From a virus (lineage: Duplodnaviria > Heunggongvirae > Uroviricota > Caudoviricetes), in IMG/VR virus record IMGVR_UViG_2645727810_000025, positions 1 to 43,893 of that record: 43,893 nt of DNA; one strand, given 5' to 3'. This document shows positions 1-43,893 of the stretch, piece after piece; within the stretch, counting starts at the first letter, position 1; every line of letters begins with the position of its first letter. The notes under the pieces were generated by a model that saw only the letters and a program-made list of their open reading frames with translations, had not been told where the DNA came from and searched no databases. Position numbers and translations under genes: made by a program.

Positions 1-180
1 TTAATTTCTGGATTGTATAAATTCTCGCTGTAGTTCAACTGTCATTTGCAGTTCTTCGCATTTCTTATGCAAGACACTATTTTCCGTTTGCAGCCAGTTA
101 ACTTGCGCGCTTTTCTGCACAATCACAGCGCGCTGCTCTTCCAGTTGGCGGATTAACTCCGCCTCATTGAACATATTCAT
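1..180 (-). CDS. hypothetical small protein (59 aa), coiled-coil-like
   Basis: ATG at 180-178 overlaps the TGA of the upstream methylase gene (ATGA); stop TAA at 3-1; sequence MNMFNEAELIRQ...; no recognisable domain. Confidence 0.45.
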   Translation of the reverse strand: MNMFNEAELIRQLEEQRAVIVQKSAQVNWLQTENSVLHKKCEELQMTVELQREFIQSRN

Positions 181-824
181 GCTGCACGCTCCCGTCCCTG
201 GCTGTCTGATGGTGATAGCGGGGCGTTTTTGAATGCCTTCGCCATTCCTGAGATATCTAGTGCATAACCAGGTTGCAGTTGCACTGCCGGACCGTCGCAC
301 TGATTTCCCCATACATCGAAGCCATGCGACGACTGGCGGGCGAAAAGCTCAATGCGCGGCACATCGCCCAGCAGCTGCACCAGTTTCTCTCTGATCACGT
401 CCGGCTTGCGCGAGTTCTCCAGGCGCGGCGCCGTGACATGCTGGCAGATAGAGGCGTCCATTCGTGCAGGAAGTTTTCCGCGTACCGCAAAGAGTACGTC
501 TTCGCTATTCGCCCTGGTCATGTGGCCCATTCCGATCGCACTGTTTCCTTTGTGCTTATTCGTCTTGTGCCAGGTGAATCCCTTCATGGTCATCAGCTTG
601 AAGCCCCACGCCTCGACTACCTTCAGTGCCTCAACCGGCTGCGTCGGCACCCACCACATAGCCAGCAGGCAATCGTCGGCTGCCAGATCCCAAACCGGCA
701 GGCGGCAGATATCCAACACGTTCATTACTGGGTATTTAAACCCGGCACCGCGCTCGCCGTCGGCGGCTTTATCGCGGTAGACCCAAGGCGGATCAGCGTA
801 GATAAGTGTGTATTTAACGGTCAT
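177..824 (-). CDS. DNA N6-adenine methyltransferase (Dam/MT-A70-like)
   Basis: 215-aa ORF with the DPPW catalytic motif (IYADPPW) near the N-terminus; ATG with SD-like GAAGGCGGTG; 4-bp ATGA overlaps with both neighbours. Confidence 0.8.
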   Translation of the reverse strand: MTVKYTLIYADPPWVYRDKAADGERGAGFKYPVMNVLDICRLPVWDLAADDCLLAMWWVPTQPVEALKVVEAWGFKLMTMKGFTWHKTNKHKGNSAIGMGHMTRANSEDVLFAVRGKLPARMDASICQHVTAPRLENSRKPDVIREKLVQLLGDVPRIELFARQSSHGFDVWGNQCDGPAVQLQPGYALDISGMAKAFKNAPLSPSDSQGRERAA

Positions 825-1483
825 GCTGCACCGCCTTCAATGCGCTTAAACTCGATCACCCAGACCCACGGGTTGGAATAAAAGCTGCCAGCTCCGTTAA
901 CCTTGTCCCACCACGCTTTAAAGCCATGCATTTCCGGACATAATCCAACCGGAACGCCTGCGATCGCATAATGCTCTGCATGGTTGAAGGCGCGGCCTGC
1001 GACGGTATCGCAATGCTCTAGCATATCTCCAAGGTCATTCAGGAGGTTTGATTCATCGGCATTCTGAAGCCTCTCGACGCGAATTCCGGTTATCTCCAGG
1101 CTGATTCTGCTGGCGGCGCGAGGCATGACTGCGCCAGATTGTGGGCGTGTCCAGTCTCCCCACTCCGGATCACCATCTGCCCAATACCAGAAATCCGGGA
1201 CTTCATGAGGCACGGCGGAATCGAAGAAGTTAAATGCGTCGAGCCGTGAAAATGACTCTCTGACGTAAATAACATCGCCGACTGCACCGAATGGACATGG
1301 ATGCCAGTAATCGCACACATTTTCAGCATCCTCACTCCACGGCCACCGGCTACCGTCTTCACGTTCTGCAATTTCTGTAGCCCGAGTCTGACGCCATTTT
1401 ATGGGCCGACGAACCTGCGTCATGCTGCCATCAAGCAGGGCACGCACTTGGTGCTCGTTGAAAATCATTCCGCGCTCTTTCAT
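821..1483 (-). CDS. hypothetical phage protein (220 aa)
   Basis: Long ORF with ATG start, translationally coupled at both ends; Trp/Cys-rich; no confident family assignment from sequence alone. Confidence 0.6.
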   Translation of the reverse strand: MKERGMIFNEHQVRALLDGSMTQVRRPIKWRQTRATEIAEREDGSRWPWSEDAENVCDYWHPCPFGAVGDVIYVRESFSRLDAFNFFDSAVPHEVPDFWYWADGDPEWGDWTRPQSGAVMPRAASRISLEITGIRVERLQNADESNLLNDLGDMLEHCDTVAGRAFNHAEHYAIAGVPVGLCPEMHGFKAWWDKVNGAGSFYSNPWVWVIEFKRIEGGAA

Positions 1484-1638
1484 GCTGCAACCTTCTTATT
1501 ATTCATCAGCTCAGCAATGCGCTGAGCCTTTAATGGGTTTTTGATAACCTTTCTGCCTGGCACAATCCATCCGCAACGAAGAGATGAATAAACCAGCGTG
1601 ATGCTACCGACGCGGATATTGTCGTGAGGGTTAGTCAT
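1480..1638 (-). CDS. hypothetical small protein (52 aa)
   Basis: ATG at 1638 preceded by GGTGGTG SD-like; stop overlaps next start (ATGA); the track's alternative GTG start at 1677 would overlap the upstream gene. Confidence 0.4.
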   Translation of the reverse strand: MTNPHDNIRVGSITLVYSSLRCGWIVPGRKVIKNPLKAQRIAELMNNKKVAA

Positions 1639-1930
1639 ACACCACCCCGCGACATCCGATCCCTGCGTATTCACCACGGCGCAGGCCGTTACCTTTCGAT
1701 ATGCACTGATCGCGGCGTATCGCTATCCTTGCGCGTTCAACCTCACCGACTGCTGCATCCATGCACAGCAACCAAAGCCTGGCTGCAATGCGGAACTGGC
1801 CTTTCGATTCTCGCTCAACAGCGCGCTTTTCTACCTCCATCGCCGCAGGAGTTACGGCGACAACCTTTGAAGCCTGACGCTGAGACACATAGTTCAGGTG
1901 ATACTTTTCAAGACGGGTTAATTTGCTCAT
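1631..1930 (-). CDS. hypothetical protein (99 aa)
   Basis: ATG at 1930 chosen over the track's longer upstream start because it is coupled (ATGA) to the stop of an upstream small ORF. Confidence 0.5.
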   Translation of the reverse strand: MSKLTRLEKYHLNYVSQRQASKVVAVTPAAMEVEKRAVERESKGQFRIAARLWLLCMDAAVGEVERARIAIRRDQCISKGNGLRRGEYAGIGCRGVVYD

Positions 1931-2043
1931 CGGATCCAGCCTTCTATGAAAATTACCGCCAGCAGATACAGCCAGGCGGAAACAGAGGTCAGGAATAAGT
2001 ACCATCCTGACCATTTTTCCCAGTGCCTGATCAGCGCTGTCAT
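1927..2043 (-). CDS. candidate small hydrophobic membrane peptide (38 aa), below the ORF-track cutoff
   Basis: My own translation: MTALIRHWEKWSGWYLFLTSVSAWLYLLAVIFIEGWIR; ATG overlaps the AlpA-like stop (ATGA) and its TGA overlaps the next ATG (ATGA); one predicted TM helix. Confidence 0.35.
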   Translation of the reverse strand: MTALIRHWEKWSGWYLFLTSVSAWLYLLAVIFIEGWIR

Positions 2044-2288
2044 GCGGCGTTACTTACTGGGCGGTAAACGCGCTGATCAACCGGCGGCTTTTTTCCGGTG
2101 AACTCTGCGGGGCTGGTGGCCTGACGTTCATCAAGCCAGTTCTCAACCTCTTCAGCGTTCCATGCACAACGCTTATCAGTAATCCAGAATCGCTGCGGGA
2201 ACTCGCCATTGCGCTCCATGCGATCAATGGTGCTCATAGATACCGGCACCACTGCCATCAGTTCCTTTTTGCCAAATGCTCTTTTCAT
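2040..2288 (-). CDS. AlpA-family phage transcriptional regulator / excisionase-like HTH protein
   Basis: 82 aa; motif VVPVSMSTIDRMERNGEFPQRF typical of the AlpA (prophage CP4-57 regulatory) family; ATG with GAGAGG SD. Confidence 0.75.
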   Translation of the reverse strand: MKRAFGKKELMAVVPVSMSTIDRMERNGEFPQRFWITDKRCAWNAEEVENWLDERQATSPAEFTGKKPPVDQRVYRPVSNAA

Positions 2289-2334
2289 AATTACCTCTCT
2301 TGCATTTGCGACGCGCGCGGCGCCGCAGTGGTGG

Positions 2335-3216
2335 TTACATCGGTACTTCGTTCAGTTCGTCGCAGCGGATGGTGTAAACGTCAGTTGCTTTTGCCAGCAG
2401 GTCATCATCACCTGCCAGTTTCTGAGCAACGTATTTGTACGCTTTGTCCAGTTCGGCCTGAGTGTTGTAGTTCATCGCCGCTACGGAAAATGCGTGCAGA
2501 ATCTCTTCAGGGCCGCGATCATCTTTGTACTGCTGACGATCTTCCTGCTTCTGCTCAGGCTTTGAGTTGATCAGGCTGTTCATGCCCTGAGCCGTTGCCG
2601 CAGGTGGCGTGATGTCGCGCTCAACACGCGGTGTTGTCTCCTGCAGTTCGTCGGGTGTATAGACACCAAGAAGAACATCAGGGGCATGCAGGCGCGCCCA
2701 GCGCTTAACGCACAGATAAGCAAGTTGCTGACGTGGATCCTGTTCCCACAGTGGAGAGTTACGGACACCGGCCTGAGCCATGCTGATGGTAAGTTCACGC
2801 GGCTCTGCTTCGCCTTTCAGCACTGCCGATACTGTTACGGTCAGTGATGGTGACTTGTCGCTCTTGCCATTCACCTTTGACCAGTCGCCGTCCCAGCGGT
2901 AATTCAGGCGGGTTGAAAGCAGGTTTGAAGACGAAACGACGGCGTTAACAAGCTGCGCTTCATAGCCAAGAGTGCCGTTTACAACGTGCGTCTTCTGGGC
3001 CACAGCGAACGGGTTCATGCCCCACTGCGCCGCCTGCATGGTTACCGCCAGGCAGTCAGCAGGCTTTCCTGCCAGGTGCTGCGGAACGGTTGCTTTACTG
3101 TCTGCCATCAGGGTTGCGAAACGCACCAGGCGGTCCATACCCTCAGGACTGAAGATTGCCGCAGCGGTCCCTACGGTAGCGCCAGGCTGTGATGTGATTG
3201 CGATATCGTTGCTCAT
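2335..3216 (-). CDS. single-strand annealing recombinase, RecT/Red-beta (Bet) family
   Basis: 293 aa from ATG at 3216 (ATGA overlap with exonuclease stop); QWGMNPF segment resembles the lambda Bet QYGLNPW region; partner of the adjacent exonuclease. Confidence 0.65.
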   Translation of the reverse strand: MSNDIAITSQPGATVGTAAAIFSPEGMDRLVRFATLMADSKATVPQHLAGKPADCLAVTMQAAQWGMNPFAVAQKTHVVNGTLGYEAQLVNAVVSSSNLLSTRLNYRWDGDWSKVNGKSDKSPSLTVTVSAVLKGEAEPRELTISMAQAGVRNSPLWEQDPRQQLAYLCVKRWARLHAPDVLLGVYTPDELQETTPRVERDITPPAATAQGMNSLINSKPEQKQEDRQQYKDDRGPEEILHAFSVAAMNYNTQAELDKAYKYVAQKLAGDDDLLAKATDVYTIRCDELNEVPM

Positions 3217-4034
3217 ACGTACATATCCTGTTTTCTTGCCCATTCAGGGCGTTTAATAATTTCCACGCCACCCCATTCATCACTGATGCGGCACTCGTGA
3301 TAGGTGTTCAAATCCCGGCGGAATAACTGGTGCCCGGCGTCAACATCCAGCGCATCCAGTTCGAACACGCGGACCGGGTATCGACCGCAGTCGATGGTTT
3401 CGCTCACAGCCAGGAAGAAAAATCCGTGTGGCTGCCCAGTTACTTTCAGTGCGCCCTCTCTGTACATGGCGTCCTGCACGTGGTAGCGGAATTCCTCGAT
3501 GTGACGAGCAAAGCGATCCATGTCTGCAACCTTTTTCACGTCGACGATCACGTTGTGTTCATTCAGCCACTTATCAGGTCGTATTCGGCACAACTCGCCA
3601 GTCTCATCGTCATTCCAGTACATCGATGCTTCGCAGTGGCCTGGCGCTTCCAGCATCCAGCGCGCCGCCGGGTGAGCCATTGCGCTTTTGTGCATCAAAC
3701 CTAGCTTTCTCCAATCCTCATCAGGAATAGGTGTTATATCCATCCCATCTATTGATTCTTTGAATGCAGCTAATGCCACTTTTCCCTTCGTAGTTCGAAG
3801 ATCAACTTTCGGCTCTTTCACAAAACGCTTATCGAATTCATCCGGCTCAAGCAGCAGGCAGTGCAGCGCAGTACCCATGTCCAGTGCGGATTTCTTCTCT
3901 TCATCTTCCGGAGCAGCCTTCACCCATTTCAGAAGGGCAGGGTTCTTGGCCACCATATCCAGTTGTGACTTACTCACGCCGTCACCGGCGTGGTAGTCCT
4001 CGTTGCTGATGTCGTAATAGATGCCTGTATTCAT
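3213..4034 (-). CDS. phage exonuclease, PD-(D/E)XK family (RecE/exoVIII-like partner of the annealing protein)
   Basis: 273 aa; N-terminus MNTGIYYDISNEDYHAG is characteristic of phage PD-(D/E)XK recombination exonucleases; immediately upstream of the RecT/Bet-like gene. Confidence 0.65.
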   Translation of the reverse strand: MNTGIYYDISNEDYHAGDGVSKSQLDMVAKNPALLKWVKAAPEDEEKKSALDMGTALHCLLLEPDEFDKRFVKEPKVDLRTTKGKVALAAFKESIDGMDITPIPDEDWRKLGLMHKSAMAHPAARWMLEAPGHCEASMYWNDDETGELCRIRPDKWLNEHNVIVDVKKVADMDRFARHIEEFRYHVQDAMYREGALKVTGQPHGFFFLAVSETIDCGRYPVRVFELDALDVDAGHQLFRRDLNTYHECRISDEWGGVEIIKRPEWARKQDMYV

Positions 4035-4333
4035 GCCGCATTCCTTTTGCTGTCGATCTGGTCAGCAAGGTCAAGACGGGCGATGATGCCGGTCAGCTCG
4101 CGCTTAAATGTCGACACGACCTCTTCGAACTCGCAACTTTCACGCGCTGCGTCGATGATTTCTTTGCGTACCCCTGAGCGCAGCAGTGCTCGCTCGAATG
4201 ACTCTTCCATTTCGCAACCAGCAACTGCTTCGATCAGCTCAACGTGGCGGTCGTACAGTTCAGATGACAGCTGGTAGTCATTGCCGAACTGAGATGCTAT
4301 TTTTTTTAGGTTATTGAATTGCTTAATGTTCAT
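4031..4333 (-). CDS. hypothetical protein (100 aa)
   Basis: ATG (MNIKQF...) chosen inside the track ORF, whose first codon is TTG; stop overlaps the exonuclease start. Confidence 0.5.
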   Translation of the reverse strand: MNIKQFNNLKKIASQFGNDYQLSSELYDRHVELIEAVAGCEMEESFERALLRSGVRKEIIDAARESCEFEEVVSTFKRELTGIIARLDLADQIDSKRNAA

Positions 4334-4340
4334 AGTCACC

Positions 4341-5333
4341 TCAGTAGTTGATGGTCGTTGCGGGTACTTTCCCGCGAGCGATGGCGACAACACATTCCTT
4401 CGCCCAGTCATCAGGAATACCCTGGTCAATTAGCGCTTGAACCGCAGAAGCATTAATGGCACGACGGTGCTCTACATCAGCAGCGCGTGCTGCCGCTTCG
4501 TCAGCGATGCGTTTCTCTTCTGCCAGGCGTGCTGCTTCTTTCGCTTCGGCCTCGCGCTTAATTCGATCTGCTTCTTCCTGTGATTTGCGCTTCTCGGCTT
4601 CGATAGCTTCCTGCTTTTCACGCTCGGCACGATCAGCGGCTTCCTTCTTCTCTGCTTCAGCTTTTTGCTCTGTGGCAATGCGGTCACGCTCTGCTTGCTC
4701 TGCCTTGAGCTTTAATTCAGCCTCACGACGGGCAGATTCAGCGCGTTCACGCTCTATTTTCTCTTCAGCTTCACGCCTGGCCTTTTCTTCCGCCTGGCGC
4801 TTCAACTCTTCTTCATGAGCAATGCGCTGGCGCTCTGCTTCTTCTGCTTTCGCCTTCGCTTCTCGGTCGAATGCGTCGTTCATCAGCAGGGCCATCTCGT
4901 GATCCGCTTCGAACTTGGCAGCCCGCTCCTGATCGAACTTGATATTCATCTCCAGTGCTTCGGCGTGCAGCACATTCATGGCTTCTTCAGCCTTGATGCG
5001 TTCCTGCTCGGCCTCCCATTCGGTAAGTGGGCGGCGAACCTCATCGCGCATCTCATCGCAAGCTGATACAAATCGACGCAGTTCAGCCTCAGCAGGTTTG
5101 ACGGCTTCTTTCAGATGACGAAGGTAATCTCGACCAGGCTTTTCAACTGCTGTTTTACTGCGAGAAACCTGTGCTGCCAGAGATGCAATGCGGGCACGAC
5201 CTTTGGCAGTGCTCAGGTCAGGAACTTCGTTAACGCTTTCGCGGATCTGTTCGAGGAACTTTTCCAGACCGTTTTCTACGTAAATGCTTGGCGCCATATC
5301 TGGCGCAATTTCGATAATTGCTAATTCGCTCAC
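4341..5333 (-). CDS. charged coiled-coil protein with E/K/R/A-rich repeat core (330 aa)
   Basis: GTG start with GGGGG SD-like; about 150-aa low-complexity stretch (AEEAERQRIAHEEELKRQAEEKARREAEEK...) flanked by non-repetitive ends. Confidence 0.6.
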   Translation of the reverse strand: MSELAIIEIAPDMAPSIYVENGLEKFLEQIRESVNEVPDLSTAKGRARIASLAAQVSRSKTAVEKPGRDYLRHLKEAVKPAEAELRRFVSACDEMRDEVRRPLTEWEAEQERIKAEEAMNVLHAEALEMNIKFDQERAAKFEADHEMALLMNDAFDREAKAKAEEAERQRIAHEEELKRQAEEKARREAEEKIERERAESARREAELKLKAEQAERDRIATEQKAEAEKKEAADRAEREKQEAIEAEKRKSQEEADRIKREAEAKEAARLAEEKRIADEAAARAADVEHRRAINASAVQALIDQGIPDDWAKECVVAIARGKVPATTINY

Positions 5334-5479
5334 TTGCTAACCCCCATATCCATTTCCGTTTTTACCGCCAGCTTGCTGACGAATACCCAGTTCATGCCTT
5401 CACCCAGCGTGCGAAACTTCCAGCTCATCAGCCCGCAAGCTGTAACGCAGTACCAACCATTGATGACTTTCCACTGCAT
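5330..5479 (-). CDS. hypothetical small protein (49 aa), first gene of the leftward operon
   Basis: ATG at 5479 with GAGAGG SD just downstream of an operator-like site; the track's TTG start at 5611 would place two operator palindromes inside the coding region. Confidence 0.3.
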   Translation of the reverse strand: MQWKVINGWYCVTACGLMSWKFRTLGEGMNWVFVSKLAVKTEMDMGVSK

Positions 5480-5492
5480 ATGAACCTCTCTA

Positions 5493-5507
5493 TTACCATT
5501 TTGGTAA
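5493..5507. promoter_or_regulatory. operator-like palindrome TTACCATTTTGGTAA (OL-like site 1)
   Basis: Perfect 5+5 inverted repeat with 5-nt spacer, 14 nt upstream of the leftward operon start. Confidence 0.6.
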
Positions 5508-5568
5508 TACTTGAAGATGCAGGAAAGCCACGAAGTGGTGGTTTCTGCCTGAGCGACGCGCTCCTGTA

Positions 5569-5583
5569 TTACCTTTTGGGTAA
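5569..5583. promoter_or_regulatory. operator-like palindrome TTACCTTTTGGGTAA (OL-like site 2)
   Basis: Same TTACC-N5-GGTAA pattern, followed by TAATC. Confidence 0.55.
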
Positions 5584-5630
5584 TAATCAGATCAAAAAGT
5601 GATTGTGTCAATAGGTATGACGAGAAAAAA

Positions 5631-5645
5631 TTACCATTTTGGTAA
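5631..5645. promoter_or_regulatory. operator-like palindrome TTACCATTTTGGTAA (OL-like site 3)
   Basis: Same pattern; lies between the leftward operon and the 3' end of the repressor gene. Confidence 0.55.
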
Positions 5646-5703
5646 TTGCGTGAGGCGCGAGCTTACCGCCATCGGGCAGGTAAAGCGTCAGAATGGCGGG
5701 GGA

Positions 5704-6300
5704 TTACTTGCTTTTGTTCTGCTCAAACACGAAGTTGATGAATGAGGTGATCTTGTTCTTCTCTTCCTGTGGCAGAGCTGCATACATCCGGTGGTCGTAG
5801 TCGATAACACCAGGAGCGCCGACGGGAATAATCATCTCGTATGCTTCATGCCCGAACGCGCGCGCCAGGGAGGAAAGAACACCGATGGTCGTGCTGACTT
5901 CCGCTTTCATAATCCGGTTAACTGTGGCCGGGCCAATACCAGCTGCAACAGCAACTTTCTTTTCGGATGTCATTTCCGTGTTCTTTCTCATCCAGGCATT
6001 GAGCGTGGCTGCGGCCTGCTTCTCTACAGTCCATTCGCCATCTTCAGTGGCCGGAATAAAGATATCAGCCTGTACTGCGTCCAGTTCGTGATCGACATCA
6101 AGCCAGAACTTTTCTTTGCGCGCCGCTTCTTCAATGATACGCGCGGCATTCGGCCCGATGTTTTTGATGCCAGTGCACCACCGGTTGACCAGGTTCTGCG
6201 AACGCTTCACCCGCTCTGCAAAGCGCAACTGGGTGTCATCGAAATCCCGGCGAATGATTTCGTTAAGGTTTTTGCGTCTTATGTCATAAATACTTTTCAT
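5704..6300 (-). CDS. CI-like phage repressor with two Xre-type helix-turn-helix domains
   Basis: 198 aa; N-terminal HTH (TQLRFAERVKRSQNLVNRW...ARKEKFWLD) and a second HTH-like segment (AVAAGIGPATVNRIMKAEV); no S24 peptidase domain; divergent from the Cro-like gene with palindromic sites on both sides; no SD before the ATG. Confidence 0.7.
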   Translation of the reverse strand: MKSIYDIRRKNLNEIIRRDFDDTQLRFAERVKRSQNLVNRWCTGIKNIGPNAARIIEEAARKEKFWLDVDHELDAVQADIFIPATEDGEWTVEKQAAATLNAWMRKNTEMTSEKKVAVAAGIGPATVNRIMKAEVSTTIGVLSSLARAFGHEAYEMIIPVGAPGVIDYDHRMYAALPQEEKNKITSFINFVFEQNKSK

Positions 6301-6354
6301 AGCTATTGTATTTGTCCATTTAATGTTACCTAACTGACTAAATTTAAATGAATA

Positions 6355-6386
6355 TTACCATAAAGGTAAAGTTACCATAACGGTAA
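6355..6386. promoter_or_regulatory. two adjacent operator-like palindromes (TTACCATAAAGGTAA and TTACCATAACGGTAA), OR-like
   Basis: Tandem TTACC-N5-GGTAA sites with 17-bp centre spacing between the divergent repressor and Cro-like genes; second site followed by TAATCAT. Confidence 0.6.
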
Positions 6387-6401
6387 TAATCATTGATTTT
6401 T

Positions 6402-6416
6402 TCACCAGAAAGGTAA
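6402..6416. promoter_or_regulatory. degenerate operator-like site TCACCAGAAAGGTAA (OR-like site 3)
   Basis: One mismatch in the left half; followed by TAATTCA; 40 bp upstream of the Cro-like ATG. Confidence 0.4.
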
Positions 6417-6455
6417 TAATTCAGATATGAATAGACAGGCTGAGATAAGCAAAAT

Positions 6456-6689
6456 ATGAGTGACGAAAAAAAATTTGATTTCAAAAAGCACTGGCTGGAG
6501 CTGTCTCCTGTTGAGCGTGAAGCATTTGCAGATGAAGCCGGAACCACCAGTCATTACATCCAGACGCACCTGACCGGGCGCCGCAAGATGCCAGGTAAGC
6601 GACTGATGGACGGACTGTTTAAAGCATGTCGTTCCCGCGAATGGACAAAGTCAAAACCTGAATTAGTGCTCTTCTTCTACGACCGATAA
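6456..6689 (+). CDS. Cro/YdaS-like small DNA-binding protein
   Basis: 77 aa; position divergent from the repressor; segment TSHYIQTHLTGRRKMP resembles YdaS/Cro-type HTH proteins. Confidence 0.55.
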   Translation: MSDEKKFDFKKHWLELSPVEREAFADEAGTTSHYIQTHLTGRRKMPGKRLMDGLFKACRSREWTKSKPELVLFFYDR

Positions 6690-6837
6690 CTCTCCCTGAA
6701 CCCATCAATGCCGTCATCCCCTGGCGGCTCCTTCCTGCATAAAACACCTTTCTGGTAATAAAAAACCATATACGGTTGATCTTTTTTCGCCTTAGTGCAA
6801 AATTACCGATATCCATAACAAAAAGGAGGCACCTCCT

Positions 6838-39982: not shown

Positions 39983-40376
39983 ATGGTACTGATTTCCGGC
40001 GACGGTATATAAAACGGTATTGGAAATTTTGTTTCTTTAAAAGTTGTTGTCAGTCAATTACTTATGTTGTCCGTAAATAATTGAGTGGGAATGATTTAAC
40101 GTCTGGCAACAGCCTGCACGTAAAAGCAGTAAAGTACCTCTAAGCCCGCGTAACTGCGGGCTTTTTTGTTTTTGTATCTGGCACTTTCTGGCAGCTGTTA
40201 GCAACGGGAAGCACGGTTTTTTCAATGGAATTTTTGATGGTACTCTCTGGTTTCGAATTCAGGTTTGAAAAAGTACCATGTGATAAATTTCGGTTGAGTT
40301 ATGGTATTTATTTTTTATAACTCAATTAAAAACAGAGAGTTAAACAAGTTTTCTGAATTTTTTACAACATGGTATT
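39983..40376. repeat. cluster of five ATGGTA(C/T)T repeats upstream of the integrase
   Basis: Copies near 39983, 40237, 40301, 40369 and an inverted copy at 40272 within an AT-rich 430-bp spacer. Confidence 0.4.
40143..40167 (+). terminator. rho-independent terminator after the lysis cassette
   Basis: AGCCCGC-gtaact-GCGGGCT hairpin followed by TTTTTTGTTTTTG. Confidence 0.7.
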
Positions 40377-40400
40377 TTTGATAAAGGAAAACAATAAAAC

Positions 40401-41591
40401 ATGTTGACTGACACCAGGCTGCGTCACCTTAAGCCGAAGGAGAAACTCTATAAAGTTAATGACCGTGATGGTCTGTATGTTGCGGTCACTCCGGCTGGAA
40501 CTATTTCATTTCGTTATAACTATTCAATAAACGGAAGACAGGAGACCGTTACTTTTGGCCGCTATGGTGTTGGAGGGATCACGCTTGCAGAAGCGCGTGA
40601 ACGGCTCAATGAAGCTAAAAAAATGGTTGCCAGTGGAAGATCGCCAGCGAGGGAAAAAGCTAGAGATAAAGCTCGTATCAAAGATGCGGAGACTTTTGGT
40701 GCATGGGCTGAGAAATGGTTACGCGGTTATCAAATGGCTGAATCGACGCGTGATATGCGGCGTTCGGTATATCAAAGGGAGTTGAAGTCAAAATTTGCGC
40801 AGCAGAAATTGACCGAGATTACACATGAAGACTTACGCGCATTAACCGATAACATTGTCGAGAGAGGGGCACCGGCGACAGCTGTGCACGCCAGAGAGAT
40901 TGTATTGCAAGTCTATCGCTGGGCTATTGAGCGCGGTCAGAAGGTTGAGAATCCCGCTGATCTGGTACGGCCTGCAAGCATAGCGAAATTTGAGCCTCGT
41001 GACAGGGCATTGACGCCAGTTGAAATTGGTCTGATGTATCGGTACATGGAACGGGTAGGAACGACGCCATCAATCAGAGCAGCGGTTAAACTTTTGCTGT
41101 TAACGATGGTACGTAAAAGTGAGCTTACTAACGCAACCTGGAACGAGATCAATTTTAGTGAGGCATTATGGACGATACCAAAGGAGAGGATGAAACGACG
41201 TAATCCACATTTGGTTTTTCTTTCCAGACAGGCAATGGATATTATGATTGCTCTCAAAACCTTTGCCGGTAGCTCTGATTTTATCCTTCCTTCGCGGTAC
41301 GATTCCGATGCGCCAATGAGTAGCGCTACTTTAAACCGGGTTTTGACACTGACGTATCGTCTGGCTCAGAAAGAAGGGGACTTGTTACCTAAGTTTGGTC
41401 CCCATGACTTACGGCGTACTGCCAGCACCTTGCTACATGAGGCCGGGTACAATACTGACTGGATTGAGAAGTGCCTTGCCCATGAACAAAAGGGGGTACG
41501 AGCTGTTTATAACAAGGCTGAATATCGTGAGCAGAGGGCCGAGATGCTACAAGATTGGGCGAATATGATTGATGAATGGACTAGTAAGTAG
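40401..41591 (+). CDS. tyrosine site-specific integrase (P4-type)
   Basis: 396 aa; N-terminal arm-binding region (MLTDTRLRHLKPKEKLYKVNDRDGLYVAV) and C-terminal catalytic region with R...HDLRRT...Y residues typical of phage tyrosine integrases. Confidence 0.85.
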   Translation: MLTDTRLRHLKPKEKLYKVNDRDGLYVAVTPAGTISFRYNYSINGRQETVTFGRYGVGGITLAEARERLNEAKKMVASGRSPAREKARDKARIKDAETFGAWAEKWLRGYQMAESTRDMRRSVYQRELKSKFAQQKLTEITHEDLRALTDNIVERGAPATAVHAREIVLQVYRWAIERGQKVENPADLVRPASIAKFEPRDRALTPVEIGLMYRYMERVGTTPSIRAAVKLLLLTMVRKSELTNATWNEINFSEALWTIPKERMKRRNPHLVFLSRQAMDIMIALKTFAGSSDFILPSRYDSDAPMSSATLNRVLTLTYRLAQKEGDLLPKFGPHDLRRTASTLLHEAGYNTDWIEKCLAHEQKGVRAVYNKAEYREQRAEMLQDWANMIDEWTSK

Positions 41592-41644
41592 TTAATAATC
41601 AGTGATTTAAGTGGATATACTTCTTTTATCTACGCCAGGAGAGC

Positions 41645-41664
41645 AATTTTAGCCGCTAAAATTT
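41645..41664. repeat. 20-bp palindromic element AATTTTAGCCGCTAAAATTT (copy 1)
   Basis: Inverted repeat ATTTTAGC/GCTAAAAT about 50 bp upstream of the 41715 gene; near-identical copy at 42481-42500. Confidence 0.6.
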
Positions 41665-41714
41665 ACTGAATCTTTACTGGTTTTATCTGGATTGCATAAA
41701 AAGGAAAAATAAAA

Positions 41715-42344
41715 GTGCCTGAGTTGTCTGTAATTATACAATGGATGAATCAATACCCTAAGACCGGCTGGCTATTGCTGTGTATCTATATTGCACTCGG
41801 TGTAGTTCGTCACAGAGTAATTAATGCTGAATCTGGAAGTGTATTTCGTGGACTACTCAATCTTAGGAAGCGCCGGCTAGAGCAAATGCTGACACAGCCA
41901 TATTTGAATAAAAATGCGGTCCGTCTGGCAAAGCGTGAGCTTCGTCAGCGCAGCCTTTATCGGCTCACAGGCTTGTATAATTATCGGCTGCAGGATTTGG
42001 CTGTAATAATGTGTGATCGTTATGGGTTGCGGGCTGGTTATCTCAAGCCGTGGCGTAACTGGCTCGAAGAACGGGATGGACGGATTGTGTTCAACAGGAA
42101 ATGGCATTGTTTTCGCTGGCGTCTTTTTCTGGTAGGTCAGATTGTAAACACAGTTCTACTAATCTTATTCATTATGTATATAGTTTCTCATTCTTCGGCC
42201 GAAATGATCGCACCGCTTATGTTACTCTTCATGCTTGTATGGTGGTTTCCTTGGCTAATGATCACCTCGGTACCTACCCCTAGGTGGACTCGCGAAATGG
42301 AAGTCTATCTTGAGAAATTTAACGCTGAACAGACCATGGTTTAA
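41715..42344 (+). CDS. hypothetical membrane protein (209 aa)
   Basis: GTG start after AAGGAAAA; N-terminal TM helix, basic middle region, C-terminal TM helices (LLILFIMYIV..., LMLLFMLVWWFPWLMI); low GC. Confidence 0.5.
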   Translation: MPELSVIIQWMNQYPKTGWLLLCIYIALGVVRHRVINAESGSVFRGLLNLRKRRLEQMLTQPYLNKNAVRLAKRELRQRSLYRLTGLYNYRLQDLAVIMCDRYGLRAGYLKPWRNWLEERDGRIVFNRKWHCFRWRLFLVGQIVNTVLLILFIMYIVSHSSAEMIAPLMLLFMLVWWFPWLMITSVPTPRWTREMEVYLEKFNAEQTMV

Positions 42345-42480
42345 ACTGTTCTTTGTTACCATGCATTCAGAGTGAATTGTCAGAGTTTTGGAAGATTCCA
42401 TCCTACGAGTAATACTCACAAGGTAATTCACATAATCAATAGGTTAAGTCATAAGCTTCTTGACCCTACATGAGAAGACG

Positions 42481-42500
42481 AATTTTAGCTGCTAAAAGTT
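42481..42500. repeat. 20-bp palindromic element AATTTTAGCTGCTAAAAGTT (copy 2)
   Basis: 18/20 identical to copy 1; about 140 bp downstream of the 41715-42344 gene. Confidence 0.6.
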
Positions 42501-42921
42501 TGGGCATATTTGGACTTAAATGCCACCGACATGATTCTAATAATTAAGCCAGTACCTAATGAGCCAAGAGAAGACAACTGTAAACGCCCCTTGGCTTAGA
42601 CTTGCTTTCAGGAAAGCGAATGCTTTTTATGGTCAGGGACAAGTAAGGGGATGAGCCATTGCATAACCATAAAACCAATTCGTTCTATGTCATTACAGAT
42701 CGGCTTCAGTGATTTACTGGTGAGGTAGTATCACTGTGATCCGTTTTGCATAACGCTTACAGCTGCGCTACAAACAATAAACTATAATACTGTATTTTCA
42801 AAATCATCAATTTGAAGCAGGGTAATCGCGAAAAACCCTCGTAAGTGGCTGGTTATAATTCAATAAAGTGGATGATATTAAGACTTAAACTGCCACCATA
42901 ATAGCTCGTGGATATACTATT

Positions 42922-43893
42922 TTAAATATAAAATTCTTTCCTCACAGACGCTAAGGCCTTGGACACAGCCTGCTTTGTCATAGTTGTGTAGTGATTTTTT
43001 TCTAAAACCTGTGCGGTTTCAAACTGGTTAAAACCTTGGTGTTTTAATATGATTATTTTTTTCTTAGTATCAGTGAATTTGGAGTCAACCATTCGTCTGG
43101 CAATATTCCTAAGTTTATCTAGATCTGCTGGGGTTAAAGTTTGACCCTGCATCCACTCATGAAAATAGGTATCAATCAATATATCCCCTGTGTTTGCGTT
43201 AGCTTTATGCGGTTTAGCGCATTGCCGTCTAAGCCTTATTAATTCTTTATTGAACTGTTCGAGAGACCGCTTTCCTTGTCTGTATTTGGGATTCCATAGA
43301 CCATTGGTGAGTTTGGGCCTATGGTCAGAACAATATCGATGACTAAGGACCTGTTTTTCATGAACGGGGAACTCATTATCGTTAGCAACAAATTCTGATA
43401 TCTCACTGATCAACTTGGAAAATTCGGTTAGATTACCGCAGAACTCGCAATAACCGAGCTTACGCTGTGAATTTATAGTTACTCCTTTTGCAGGAGAGGA
43501 TTTCTTCGGCCGCTTGGATGCGCACTCACTGACTAATTCAATAAGAGACTCAATCGTAGCGGTAAAGCATTTATCAAGAGAAGTTTGTTGATCTAAAGTC
43601 AGAACGAAATTACGCAAAAGAAGTCTTTGTGCCTGTACTACGACGTTTAAGCCCACTTTTTTAAGTACATCACTAAATCCTAGATTTACTCCAGAAATGT
43701 AGTCTTTATGACTTGGTGGCAGGGAATTTACATAAGCAGCTACTGCTGGATCAATAACTTCCTGTATGAGACGCAGTATTGGATACCTCCGTGAAAATAT
43801 GGAGTACGGATAACTACGCTCTACAAATAATTTAATTGCAGCTGCAACTGTGAGGTCACAGCCTTCCCAGATAGTAATTTTCATGTCAACCAT
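42922..43893 (-). CDS. hypothetical protein with C-terminal HTH-like region and Cys/His motifs (323 aa)
   Basis: Complete ORF with ATG at the window edge; AT-rich; C-terminus (KKKIIILKHQGFNQFETAQVLEKNHYTTMTKQAVSKALASVRKEF) resembles a sigma-70 region 4 / LuxR-type HTH; CEFCGN and CSDH motifs suggest metal binding. Confidence 0.55.
   Translation of the reverse strand: MVDMKITIWEGCDLTVAAAIKLFVERSYPYSIFSRRYPILRLIQEVIDPAVAAYVNSLPPSHKDYISGVNLGFSDVLKKVGLNVVVQAQRLLLRNFVLTLDQQTSLDKCFTATIESLIELVSECASKRPKKSSPAKGVTINSQRKLGYCEFCGNLTEFSKLISEISEFVANDNEFPVHEKQVLSHRYCSDHRPKLTNGLWNPKYRQGKRSLEQFNKELIRLRRQCAKPHKANANTGDILIDTYFHEWMQGQTLTPADLDKLRNIARRMVDSKFTDTKKKIIILKHQGFNQFETAQVLEKNHYTTMTKQAVSKALASVRKEFYI

Follow-up and report, generated by a model that had tools for sequence, protein, structure and literature searches.

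The early-left (pL) operon of an epsilon15-like prophage carries a conserved 38-codon gene between the genes of an AlpA-family regulator and a PerC-type activator, and its product is most likely a single-pass inner-membrane peptide. The prophage lies in a stretch of 43,893 nucleotides (nt) of viral DNA (IMG/VR record IMGVR_UViG_2645727810_000025, Caudoviricetes), which is referred to here as the window. The open reading frame (ORF) in question lies at 1927–2043 on the minus strand and encodes the peptide MTALIRHWEKWSGWYLFLTSVSAWLYLLAVIFIEGWIR. An earlier interpretation of the window, made from the letters alone and called here the sequence-only reading, had singled out this ORF as a hidden member of a leftward chain of overlapping genes and had suggested a Kil-like effect on the host. 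Judging from sequence comparison, the ORF is a genuine gene under selection and the local copy of epsilon15 gp32, and the peptide is probably translated by ribosomes that re-initiate after AlpA. The best explanation of the whole combines the pL operon, a real gp32 gene, coupling by re-initiation, and an early inner-membrane peptide directed at the host; we regard this combination as probable, by no means as secure.

Conservation and selection of the 38-codon gene

The length of the ORF is in itself no evidence for a gene, because 94 ORFs of at least 25 amino acids are present in 6.5 kb. The assignment is made because of conservation and codon-level selection. The sequence-only reading took the ORF for a hidden one, but the gene had already been annotated as gp32 of epsilon15 (epsilon15_p13, "membrane protein", NP_848240.1), SPN1S_0036, gp33 of Tyrion, and p35 of phiV10, the last with the note "one C terminal transmembrane helix predicted", and it has its own protein family (PHROG 17484). 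In epsilon15, SPN1S, and phiV10, this same gene of 38 amino acids is located between AlpA and PerC with 4-nt overlaps at both ends. The peptide of the window aligned with phrog_17484 ("membrane protein") from end to end (E = 4.1e-27; residues 1–38 on profile positions 1–38 of 38), and this family is placed in the PHROG category "moron, auxiliary metabolic gene and host takeover". No informative match was obtained for the peptide in Pfam, NCBIfam, or PADLOC. Its identity is 95% to epsilon15 gp32 and SPN1S_0036 and 82% to the phiV10 protein. UniProt holds the entries Q858E3 and Q286Y2, and the peptide falls into the same 90%-identity cluster as the "membrane protein" of epsilon15 and phiV10.

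The gene is widespread among related phages and prophages. A tblastn search against phages detected the ORF at full length in 35 phage records of Salmonella, Escherichia, Enterobacter, and Klebsiella (71–95% amino acid identity). The peptide is encoded in 325 IMG/VR stretches and also in four species-representative genomes (two Citrobacter, one Superficieibacter, and one Pseudocitrobacter). In complete Escherichia coli genomes, the AlpA–peptide–PerC module was found in 556 of 5426 (~10%), 541 of which match over at least 80% of the module length. When 132 related loci were compared, 124 had an ORF of 38 or 39 codons that overlaps each of its neighbors by 4 nt (ATGA or GTGA); the remaining eight comprise five without a resolvable upstream gene, one with a later PerC start, one with a nonsense mutation, and one with a frameshift. 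The sequence-only reading had named frameshifts or stops in close relatives as evidence that would refute it; the loci do not refute it, as the frame of 38 or 39 amino acids is intact in 130 of the 132. Both overlaps persist through a change from ATG to GTG in either start codon. AlpA-like and PerC-like proteins flank the ORF in every resolved locus, including the most divergent ones of Kosakonia and Kluyvera, and the genes for AlpA (excisionase/regulator), the peptide, and the PerC-type activator form an invariant three-gene cassette.

Selection was evaluated from the ratio of nonsynonymous to synonymous differences (pN/pS) in 94 distinct AlpA–peptide–PerC sequences. The value for the peptide (0.33) is similar to those of AlpA (0.23) and PerC (0.31), while the other two frames across the same DNA gave 1.36 and 1.66. 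The synonymous rate of the peptide gene is high (pS = 0.42).

Natural knockouts of the gene also occur in the collection. In locus L056 (2501–2536), a change from TCA to TAA has turned codon 12 into a stop, and locus L131 (2501–2665) contains a frameshifted version of 54 codons in which the end of AlpA is damaged as well.

Predicted structure of the peptide

The suggestion of the sequence-only reading that the peptide has a single transmembrane segment is supported by two kinds of prediction. A hydrophobic stretch of 19 residues (14–32 or 15–33) has a mean Kyte–Doolittle hydropathy of about 2.0 and a summed Hessa free energy of about −1 kcal/mol, and AlphaFold2, run on the single sequence, modeled one helix from residue 2 to residue 37 with a predicted local distance difference test score (pLDDT) of 92.8. 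Among 27 distinct family sequences, Trp11, Ser12, Gly13, Leu18, Ala23, Leu27, Ile31, and Trp36 are invariant, and Arg6, His7, Trp8, Tyr15, Trp24, and Gly35 are nearly so. The best-conserved parts are the N-terminal juxtamembrane motif rich in Trp and basic residues (R-H-W-x-K-W-S-G-W-Y), scattered positions of the core, and the Gly-Trp pair near the C terminus. Because of the one predicted helix, the juxtamembrane motif, the hydrophobic core at roughly residues 14–33, and the short C-terminal tail (E-G-W-I-(R/K)), the peptide is most likely a single-pass inner-membrane protein. The copy of the window has Ser20 and Ile33, and those of epsilon15 and SPN1S have Ala20 and Arg33. As a separate observation, two loci have an Asp residue inside the hydrophobic core (FLDSVS).

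Translation of the peptide

The start codon of the peptide is contained in GCATGA at 2040–2045, where the ATG overlaps the stop codon of AlpA. The strength of the Shine–Dalgarno (SD) sites in the operon was estimated from the duplex with the 3′ end of 16S rRNA, for which the median over all 17-mers in the operon is −2.5 kcal/mol. The duplex upstream of the peptide gene is at −0.9 kcal/mol, whereas those of the other 11 genes of the operon range from −4.1 to −9.1 kcal/mol, and the peptide gene is the sole gene of the operon without an SD site. The same applies to its relatives: all 18 distinct upstream sequences of ATG-start copies are weak (−0.9 to −3.1 kcal/mol). Two Klebsiella variants that start with GTG have SD duplexes of −4.9 and −5.7 kcal/mol. 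The SD site of AlpA itself is strong (−8.9 kcal/mol) and is located within the 46-nt spacer in front of the gene. The SD site of PerC (GAAGG or GAGGG) is encoded by the conserved Glu-Gly codons of the peptide.

The sequence-only reading had proposed tight translational coupling along the operon. Such coupling appears especially plausible for the 38-codon gene, because this gene alone has no SD site. Since the start codon is SD-less and overlaps the AlpA stop, translation of the peptide would be confined to ribosomes that have finished AlpA and then re-initiate, and the amount of peptide would consequently be tied to, and capped by, the translation of AlpA. Ribosomes finishing the peptide would in turn be passed to the overlapping start of PerC, with its SD site inside the last codons of the peptide. 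Because the operon lies behind a repressor-controlled promoter, the peptide is expected to be produced only after infection or prophage induction and not in the lysogen. A consensus scan found no promoter-like site within or opposite 1900–2100. A weak terminator-like match was noted inside the ORF (1975–1959), and shuffled sequences contain matches of this kind no less often.

Operons coupled through ATGA or TGATG junctions, such as trpB–trpA, are well known, and where the SD site of their downstream cistron is weak or missing, its translation depends on the terminating ribosomes. The operon described here resembles them in the overlap between the stop codon of a cistron and the start codon of the following one, and it differs only in the density of such junctions (8 of 11) and in the recurrent Ala-Ala-stop sequence GCNGCATGA.

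Possible functions of the peptide

Here, we propose how the peptide may act, and this is the least certain step of the explanation. Once inserted in the inner membrane of the host, the peptide would either pack its helix against a larger membrane protein or perturb the bilayer. The putative outcome is an early function directed at the host, such as an arrest of growth, division, or the envelope, or the exclusion of a second infection. A partner protein of this kind would be conserved across Enterobacteriaceae. A mode of action in the inner membrane is considered most likely because of the analogy with characterized small membrane proteins of bacteria. MgrB, AcrZ, MgtS, and Caulobacter SidA are small single-pass inner-membrane proteins that bind larger membrane proteins. 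The peptide resembles these proteins in its length of fewer than 50 residues, its one predicted transmembrane helix, the lack of an enzymatic domain, and the aromatic residues located at the interfaces of the membrane. The MgrB-type proteins, in contrast, are chromosomal and stress-regulated and have their own promoters and ribosome-binding sites, whereas the peptide is encoded by a phage within an operon and is SD-less.

Several points weigh against the proposal. Both tails have a net charge of 0 to +1, and the topology is therefore not callable from charge. One-sided conservation with a 3.6-residue periodicity along the helix was not found (4456 of 10,000 permutations do as well), so that nothing points positively to a single face for helix packing. 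Part of the conservation of the C-terminal Glu-Gly-Trp may be due to the embedded SD site of PerC and not to the function of the peptide. Codon 33 (1945–1947) encodes Ile in the window copy and Arg in most relatives, and the Ile makes the hydrophobic stretch one residue longer. The pN/pS values given above are averages over non-independent pairs of a fairly shallow family, and the family is small, with seven clusters at 50% identity in 1.84 billion proteins (HMMER, E ≤ 0.001). The searchable literature contains no expression, localization, or phenotype data for any member; searches by locus tags, accessions, and peptide fragments returned no paper that mentions the peptide, and the paper on phage ZX5 does not discuss it. 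As to codon 33, the exact Ile33 sequence is present on at least 38 contigs (60 blocks in the encoding-contig index), and the variant is therefore tolerated; a Superficieibacter prophage also has Ile at this position.

The effect proposed by the sequence-only reading, a Kil-like peptide that blocks the division of the host or kills it when the early-left operon is expressed, seems to us possible but unlikely. The peptide would then act from within the membrane, in the manner of small membrane division inhibitors and not of lambda Kil itself. By position, the gene has the early-left placement of a Kil-type gene, as it lies downstream of the promoter-like sequence at 5611–5583 and of the exonuclease and RecT genes, roughly in the place of lambda kil. 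The peptide is also small, hydrophobic, and strongly conserved; an SD-less translation limited by coupling is what would be expected for a product harmful in excess; and the PHROG category includes host takeover. Lambda Kil, too, is a small peptide of a temperate enterobacterial phage, and both are encoded near recombination genes in a leftward early operon under repressor control. The two are, however, unrelated in sequence. Lambda Kil, a division inhibitor from the pL operon, is a soluble 47-residue peptide with a predicted helix–turn–helix hairpin that needs ZipA (PMC11762379), and it acts through FtsZ and ZipA (PMC3961180, PMC11762379), whereas one continuous helix with a membrane-spanning core is predicted here. 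The window peptide has no Pfam match at E ≤ 0.01, a result that presupposes a Kil model in Pfam-A. At E ≤ 10, seven of eight family members have none, and the eighth has a weak match to TMEM164 (E = 0.0072). Relatives detected in the 1.84 billion proteins belong to its own small family only. Homology to lambda Kil is excluded within the reach of sequence comparison and fold prediction, and the Kil-like effect, which is drawn by analogy, would concern the outcome at most and neither ancestry nor structure. Searching Pfam at E ≤ 10 likewise gave no match to lambda CIII, the peptide inhibitor of FtsH, again on the presupposition that Pfam-A contains a model for it. Type I toxin peptides such as those of hok/mok are also small, hydrophobic, and single-helical, with a translation that depends on an overlapping upstream frame. 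They differ in that the present peptide gene does not form a stand-alone locus but is embedded in a twelve-gene operon in which neither an antisense RNA nor a separate promoter is evident; neither strand of 1–6800 matched any of the described Rfam families at E ≤ 1.

Alternatively, a peptide placed in the inner membrane early after infection would block the DNA entry of a second phage or protect the envelope of the infected cell. T4 Imm and Sp are small membrane proteins that are expressed early and have an exclusion role, and the present peptide, being a predicted single-pass membrane peptide made early, would fit such a role. Because the promoter in front of the gene is repressed and the scan found no promoter-like site belonging to the gene itself, it would not be expressed from the prophage and could not confer immunity on the lysogen. 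No PADLOC defense model matched, and the conservation across phages of four host genera, which probably use different receptors, argues against a receptor-specific exclusion. For these reasons, we consider superinfection exclusion or membrane protection rather improbable. It is very improbable that the ORF is merely a relay frame, whose translation carries ribosomes from AlpA to PerC and whose product has no function. The absence of an SD site, the overlaps at both ends, the SD site of PerC within the last codons, and the almost invariant length (38–39 codons) and overlaps would all suit a relay. A relay would not, however, constrain the amino acids, and this alternative fits poorly because of the selection at the amino acid level: pN/pS is as low as in the flanking regulators at a high pS, some of the eight invariant positions are far from either junction, and the character of a hydrophobic helix is kept even at about 55% identity. 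Hardly credible is the alternative that the ORF is not a gene and that the true frame is an N-terminal extension of PerC to 122–127 residues. An ORF of 127 codons does exist in the window (1631–2014, minus strand), and the long form is annotated in several phage records. This candidate was rejected, as its frame is interrupted by stops in the phiV10-like and Tyrion sequences, has a pN/pS of 1.4–1.7 over the overlap, and shows homology to PerC only from the overlapping start codon (ATG or GTG) at the end of the peptide gene.

A further idea, which we rate as a long shot, is that AlpA, the peptide, and PerC make up a three-part control cassette, and that the two DNA-binding proteins co-translated with the membrane peptide are regulated by it. 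If this were true, the peptide might hold these proteins at the membrane or protect them against a membrane or AAA+ protease. The recurrent C-terminal Ala-Ala of AlpA, and of four further proteins of the operon, would be a degradation tag, and the peptide would time excision and the output of the activator after induction. The inner-membrane peptide directed at the host remains the explanation that we prefer.

Annotation of the peptide and PerC genes

According to the sequence-only reading, the gene list supplied with the window does not include the ORF, and such an absence is consistent with an annotation habit of automatic pipelines. Among the 12 E. coli RefSeq records listed, none has a feature for the ORF under the match. 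One of these records was inspected in detail: it calls AlpA, leaves an unannotated gap of 157 nt over the ORF, and presents PerC as a truncated protein of 83 amino acids that begins at an internal ATG. Some other gene callers do call the ORF. The long form of PerC (122–127 amino acids) is annotated in PAT1, VB_ST_E15, two Klebsiella phage records, and many database entries. The conserved start of PerC, and the exact point at which the homology of PerC proteins begins, is the ATG or GTG overlapping the stop codon of the peptide. In the related loci, the PerC-family gene was seen to be widely misannotated, either overrunning the peptide ORF or truncated (L005, L007, L010, L011, and L140).

Organization of the early-left operon

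Over the queried stretches, the window has 87–96% DNA identity to Uetakevirus podoviruses of Salmonella (epsilon15, SPN1S, PAT1, and others), and by this similarity it is an epsilon15-like (Uetakevirus) temperate podovirus prophage. From the gene order and the homologies listed in Table 1, positions 1–5611 of the minus strand are the early-left (pL) operon with twelve genes. The leftward early operon described in the sequence-only reading is borne out, and its direction is away from the repressor/cro region. The candidate pL promoter, identified by a consensus match alone, is positioned between the repressor gene (5704–6300) and the first gene of the operon, at a place where epsilon15 has annotated repressor operators.

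Table 1 Features of the early-left operon in the window
Feature	Coordinates	Strand	Evidence or remark
Candidate pL promoter, TTGACA–17 nt–GATTAT	5583–5611	minus	Consensus scan, 10 of 12 matches
First operon gene, 49 amino acids (aa), homologue of epsilon15 gp37	5330–5479	minus	phrog_898, E = 4e-31, full length
330-aa highly charged protein (rich in Glu, Lys, Arg, and Ala), GTG start	4341–5333	minus	phrog_1376, E = 4.6e-102
100-aa protein ending in KRNAA-stop	4031–4333	minus	phrog_856, E = 5e-43
273-aa PD-(D/E)XK exonuclease (exonuclease VIII/RecE-like)	3213–4034	minus	Pfam DUF3799, E = 1.5e-20; phrog_412, E = 2.8e-114
293-aa RecT single-strand annealing protein	2335–3216	minus	Pfam RecT, E = 1.7e-31; phrog_561
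46-nt RecT/AlpA spacer with a GC-rich 8-bp hairpin	2289–2334	minus	No other real gap in the distal operon half
82-aa AlpA-family excisionase/regulator ending in VSNAA-stop	2040–2288	minus	Pfam Phage_AlpA, E = 1.1e-5; phrog_66
38-aa predicted single-helix membrane peptide (epsilon15 gp32 family)	1927–2043	minus	phrog_17484, E = 4e-27
99-aa PerC-family small transcriptional activator	1631–1930	minus	Pfam PerC, E = 9.5e-5; phrog_868, E = 1.4e-55
52-aa DUF1317 protein ending in KKVAA-stop	1480–1638	minus	Pfam DUF1317, E = 5.6e-24
220-aa protein with no assigned function, ending in EGGAA-stop	821–1483	minus	phrog_874, E = 2e-59
215-aa MT-A70-family DNA adenine methyltransferase ending in RERAA-stop	177–824	minus	Pfam MT-A70, E = 2.4e-23; phrog_359
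Last operon gene, 59 aa	1–180	minus	phrog_4701, E = 2.7e-33
Ala-Ala-stop junctions	177–185, 821–829, 1480–1488, 2040–2048, 4031–4039	minus	C-terminal tails

The first gene of the operon (49 amino acids) is missing from the list of the sequence-only reading, at the edge of whose interval it lies. No Pfam match was obtained for the 330-residue protein. Its gene has no counterpart at the same position in SPN1S or epsilon15 and is present in the near-identical contig L134. The 220-residue protein had no match in Pfam, NCBIfam, or PADLOC. In L134, a gene for a 417-residue integrase abuts the 59-codon gene in convergent orientation, and the integrase gene of the prophage would therefore be located just left of the window. 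The hairpin in the RecT/AlpA spacer folds with −15.3 kcal/mol, which is not significant compared with shuffled sequences (z = −0.24); the equivalent stem-loop of epsilon15 is annotated as "transcriptional pausing". The operon is mosaic at gene boundaries, as illustrated by the slot of the 220-codon gene, which is taken by a DGQHR-domain gene in SPN1S and a winged-helix gene in Tyrion and contains nothing in phiV10.

The seven ATGA junctions listed by the sequence-only reading (177–180, 821–824, 1480–1483, 1927–1930, 2040–2043, 3213–3216, and 4031–4034) are all present, and in each of them, on the minus strand, TGA closes one ORF and ATG opens the next. They were described as consecutive; the positions are correct, but the chain is not unbroken. 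PerC and DUF1317 overlap by 8 nt (ATGACTAA, 1631–1638), the spacer at 2289–2334 separates RecT from AlpA, and one of 7 nt (4334–4340) separates the genes of the 330- and 100-residue proteins. An eighth 4-nt overlap, GTGA at 5330–5333, joins the TGA of the 49-codon gene with the GTG start of the 330-codon gene. The 11 junctions of the whole operon thus include eight 4-nt overlaps and one 8-nt overlap. Based on crude ORF calls, 4-nt overlaps occur at 8 of 11 junctions in the operon versus 6 of 44 plus-strand junctions elsewhere in the prophage (Fisher p = 2.8e-4), and the enrichment is real. The tendency is the same in SPN1S, where the numbers counted from the annotation table are 5 of 11 in the left operon and about 6 of 34 elsewhere. 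Overlaps of 4 nt are the commonest type in phage and bacterial operons. The architecture of the operon is ordinary, and the overlaps are unsurprising in themselves. SPN1S, epsilon15, Tyrion, phiV10, and a Klebsiella phage share the 8-nt junction, in which PerC ends with (V/I)YD-stop, and do so even when another gene follows. The DUF1317 gene of SPN1S has retained its terminal GCAGCATGA, although no gene starts there.

Five of the 12 proteins of the operon (the methylase, the 220-residue protein, DUF1317, AlpA, and the 100-residue protein) end with Ala-Ala-stop, with the junction DNA GCNGCATGA. This pattern occurs 10 times in the window versus 3.1 expected, and six of the copies are in the left operon. 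In the related loci, 256 distinct C-terminal tails at 4-nt overlaps were collected, of which 73 end with Ala-Ala and 122 with Ala; Ala is one of the 14 residues possible for a last codon of the form NNA. The constraint looks like one on the amino acids, because all four GCN codons are used for the penultimate Ala of AlpA. The Ala-Ala ends may represent a preferred context for re-initiation, a boundary that aids gene swapping, or an ssrA-like C-terminal degradation signal.

Right end of the window

The last position with similarity to epsilon15 and SPN1S is ~40,098, which lies past the Rz gene and within the attachment region. Beyond this point, a second integrase gene is located at 40401–41591 (phrog_1), and the GC content of 40099–43893 is 40–44%, compared with 53–54% in the operon. 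Two further ORFs, of 209 residues (41715–42344) and 323 residues (42922–43893, minus strand), had no match in Pfam, PHROGs, NCBIfam, or PADLOC, and no tRNA gene was detected in the window. The segment 40099–43893 probably stems from the flanking DNA of the host or from a second integrated element. We also considered a circular phage genome in which the 323-codon gene (42922–43893) would continue the operon, and rejected it: the homology ends at ~40,098, and the integrase gene of L134 abuts the 59-codon gene.

Implications

The biological point made by this gene is modest, and knowledge of phage early operons is unchanged by it. For annotation, the lesson is that automatic pipelines often omit a selected 38-codon gene of epsilon15-like prophages or call another gene over it. 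The gene also provides a clean natural example of a membrane peptide that has no ribosome-binding site and is expected to be made solely through re-initiation downstream of an excisionase-type regulator, and it would lend itself easily to a first functional study of a small membrane protein from a phage.

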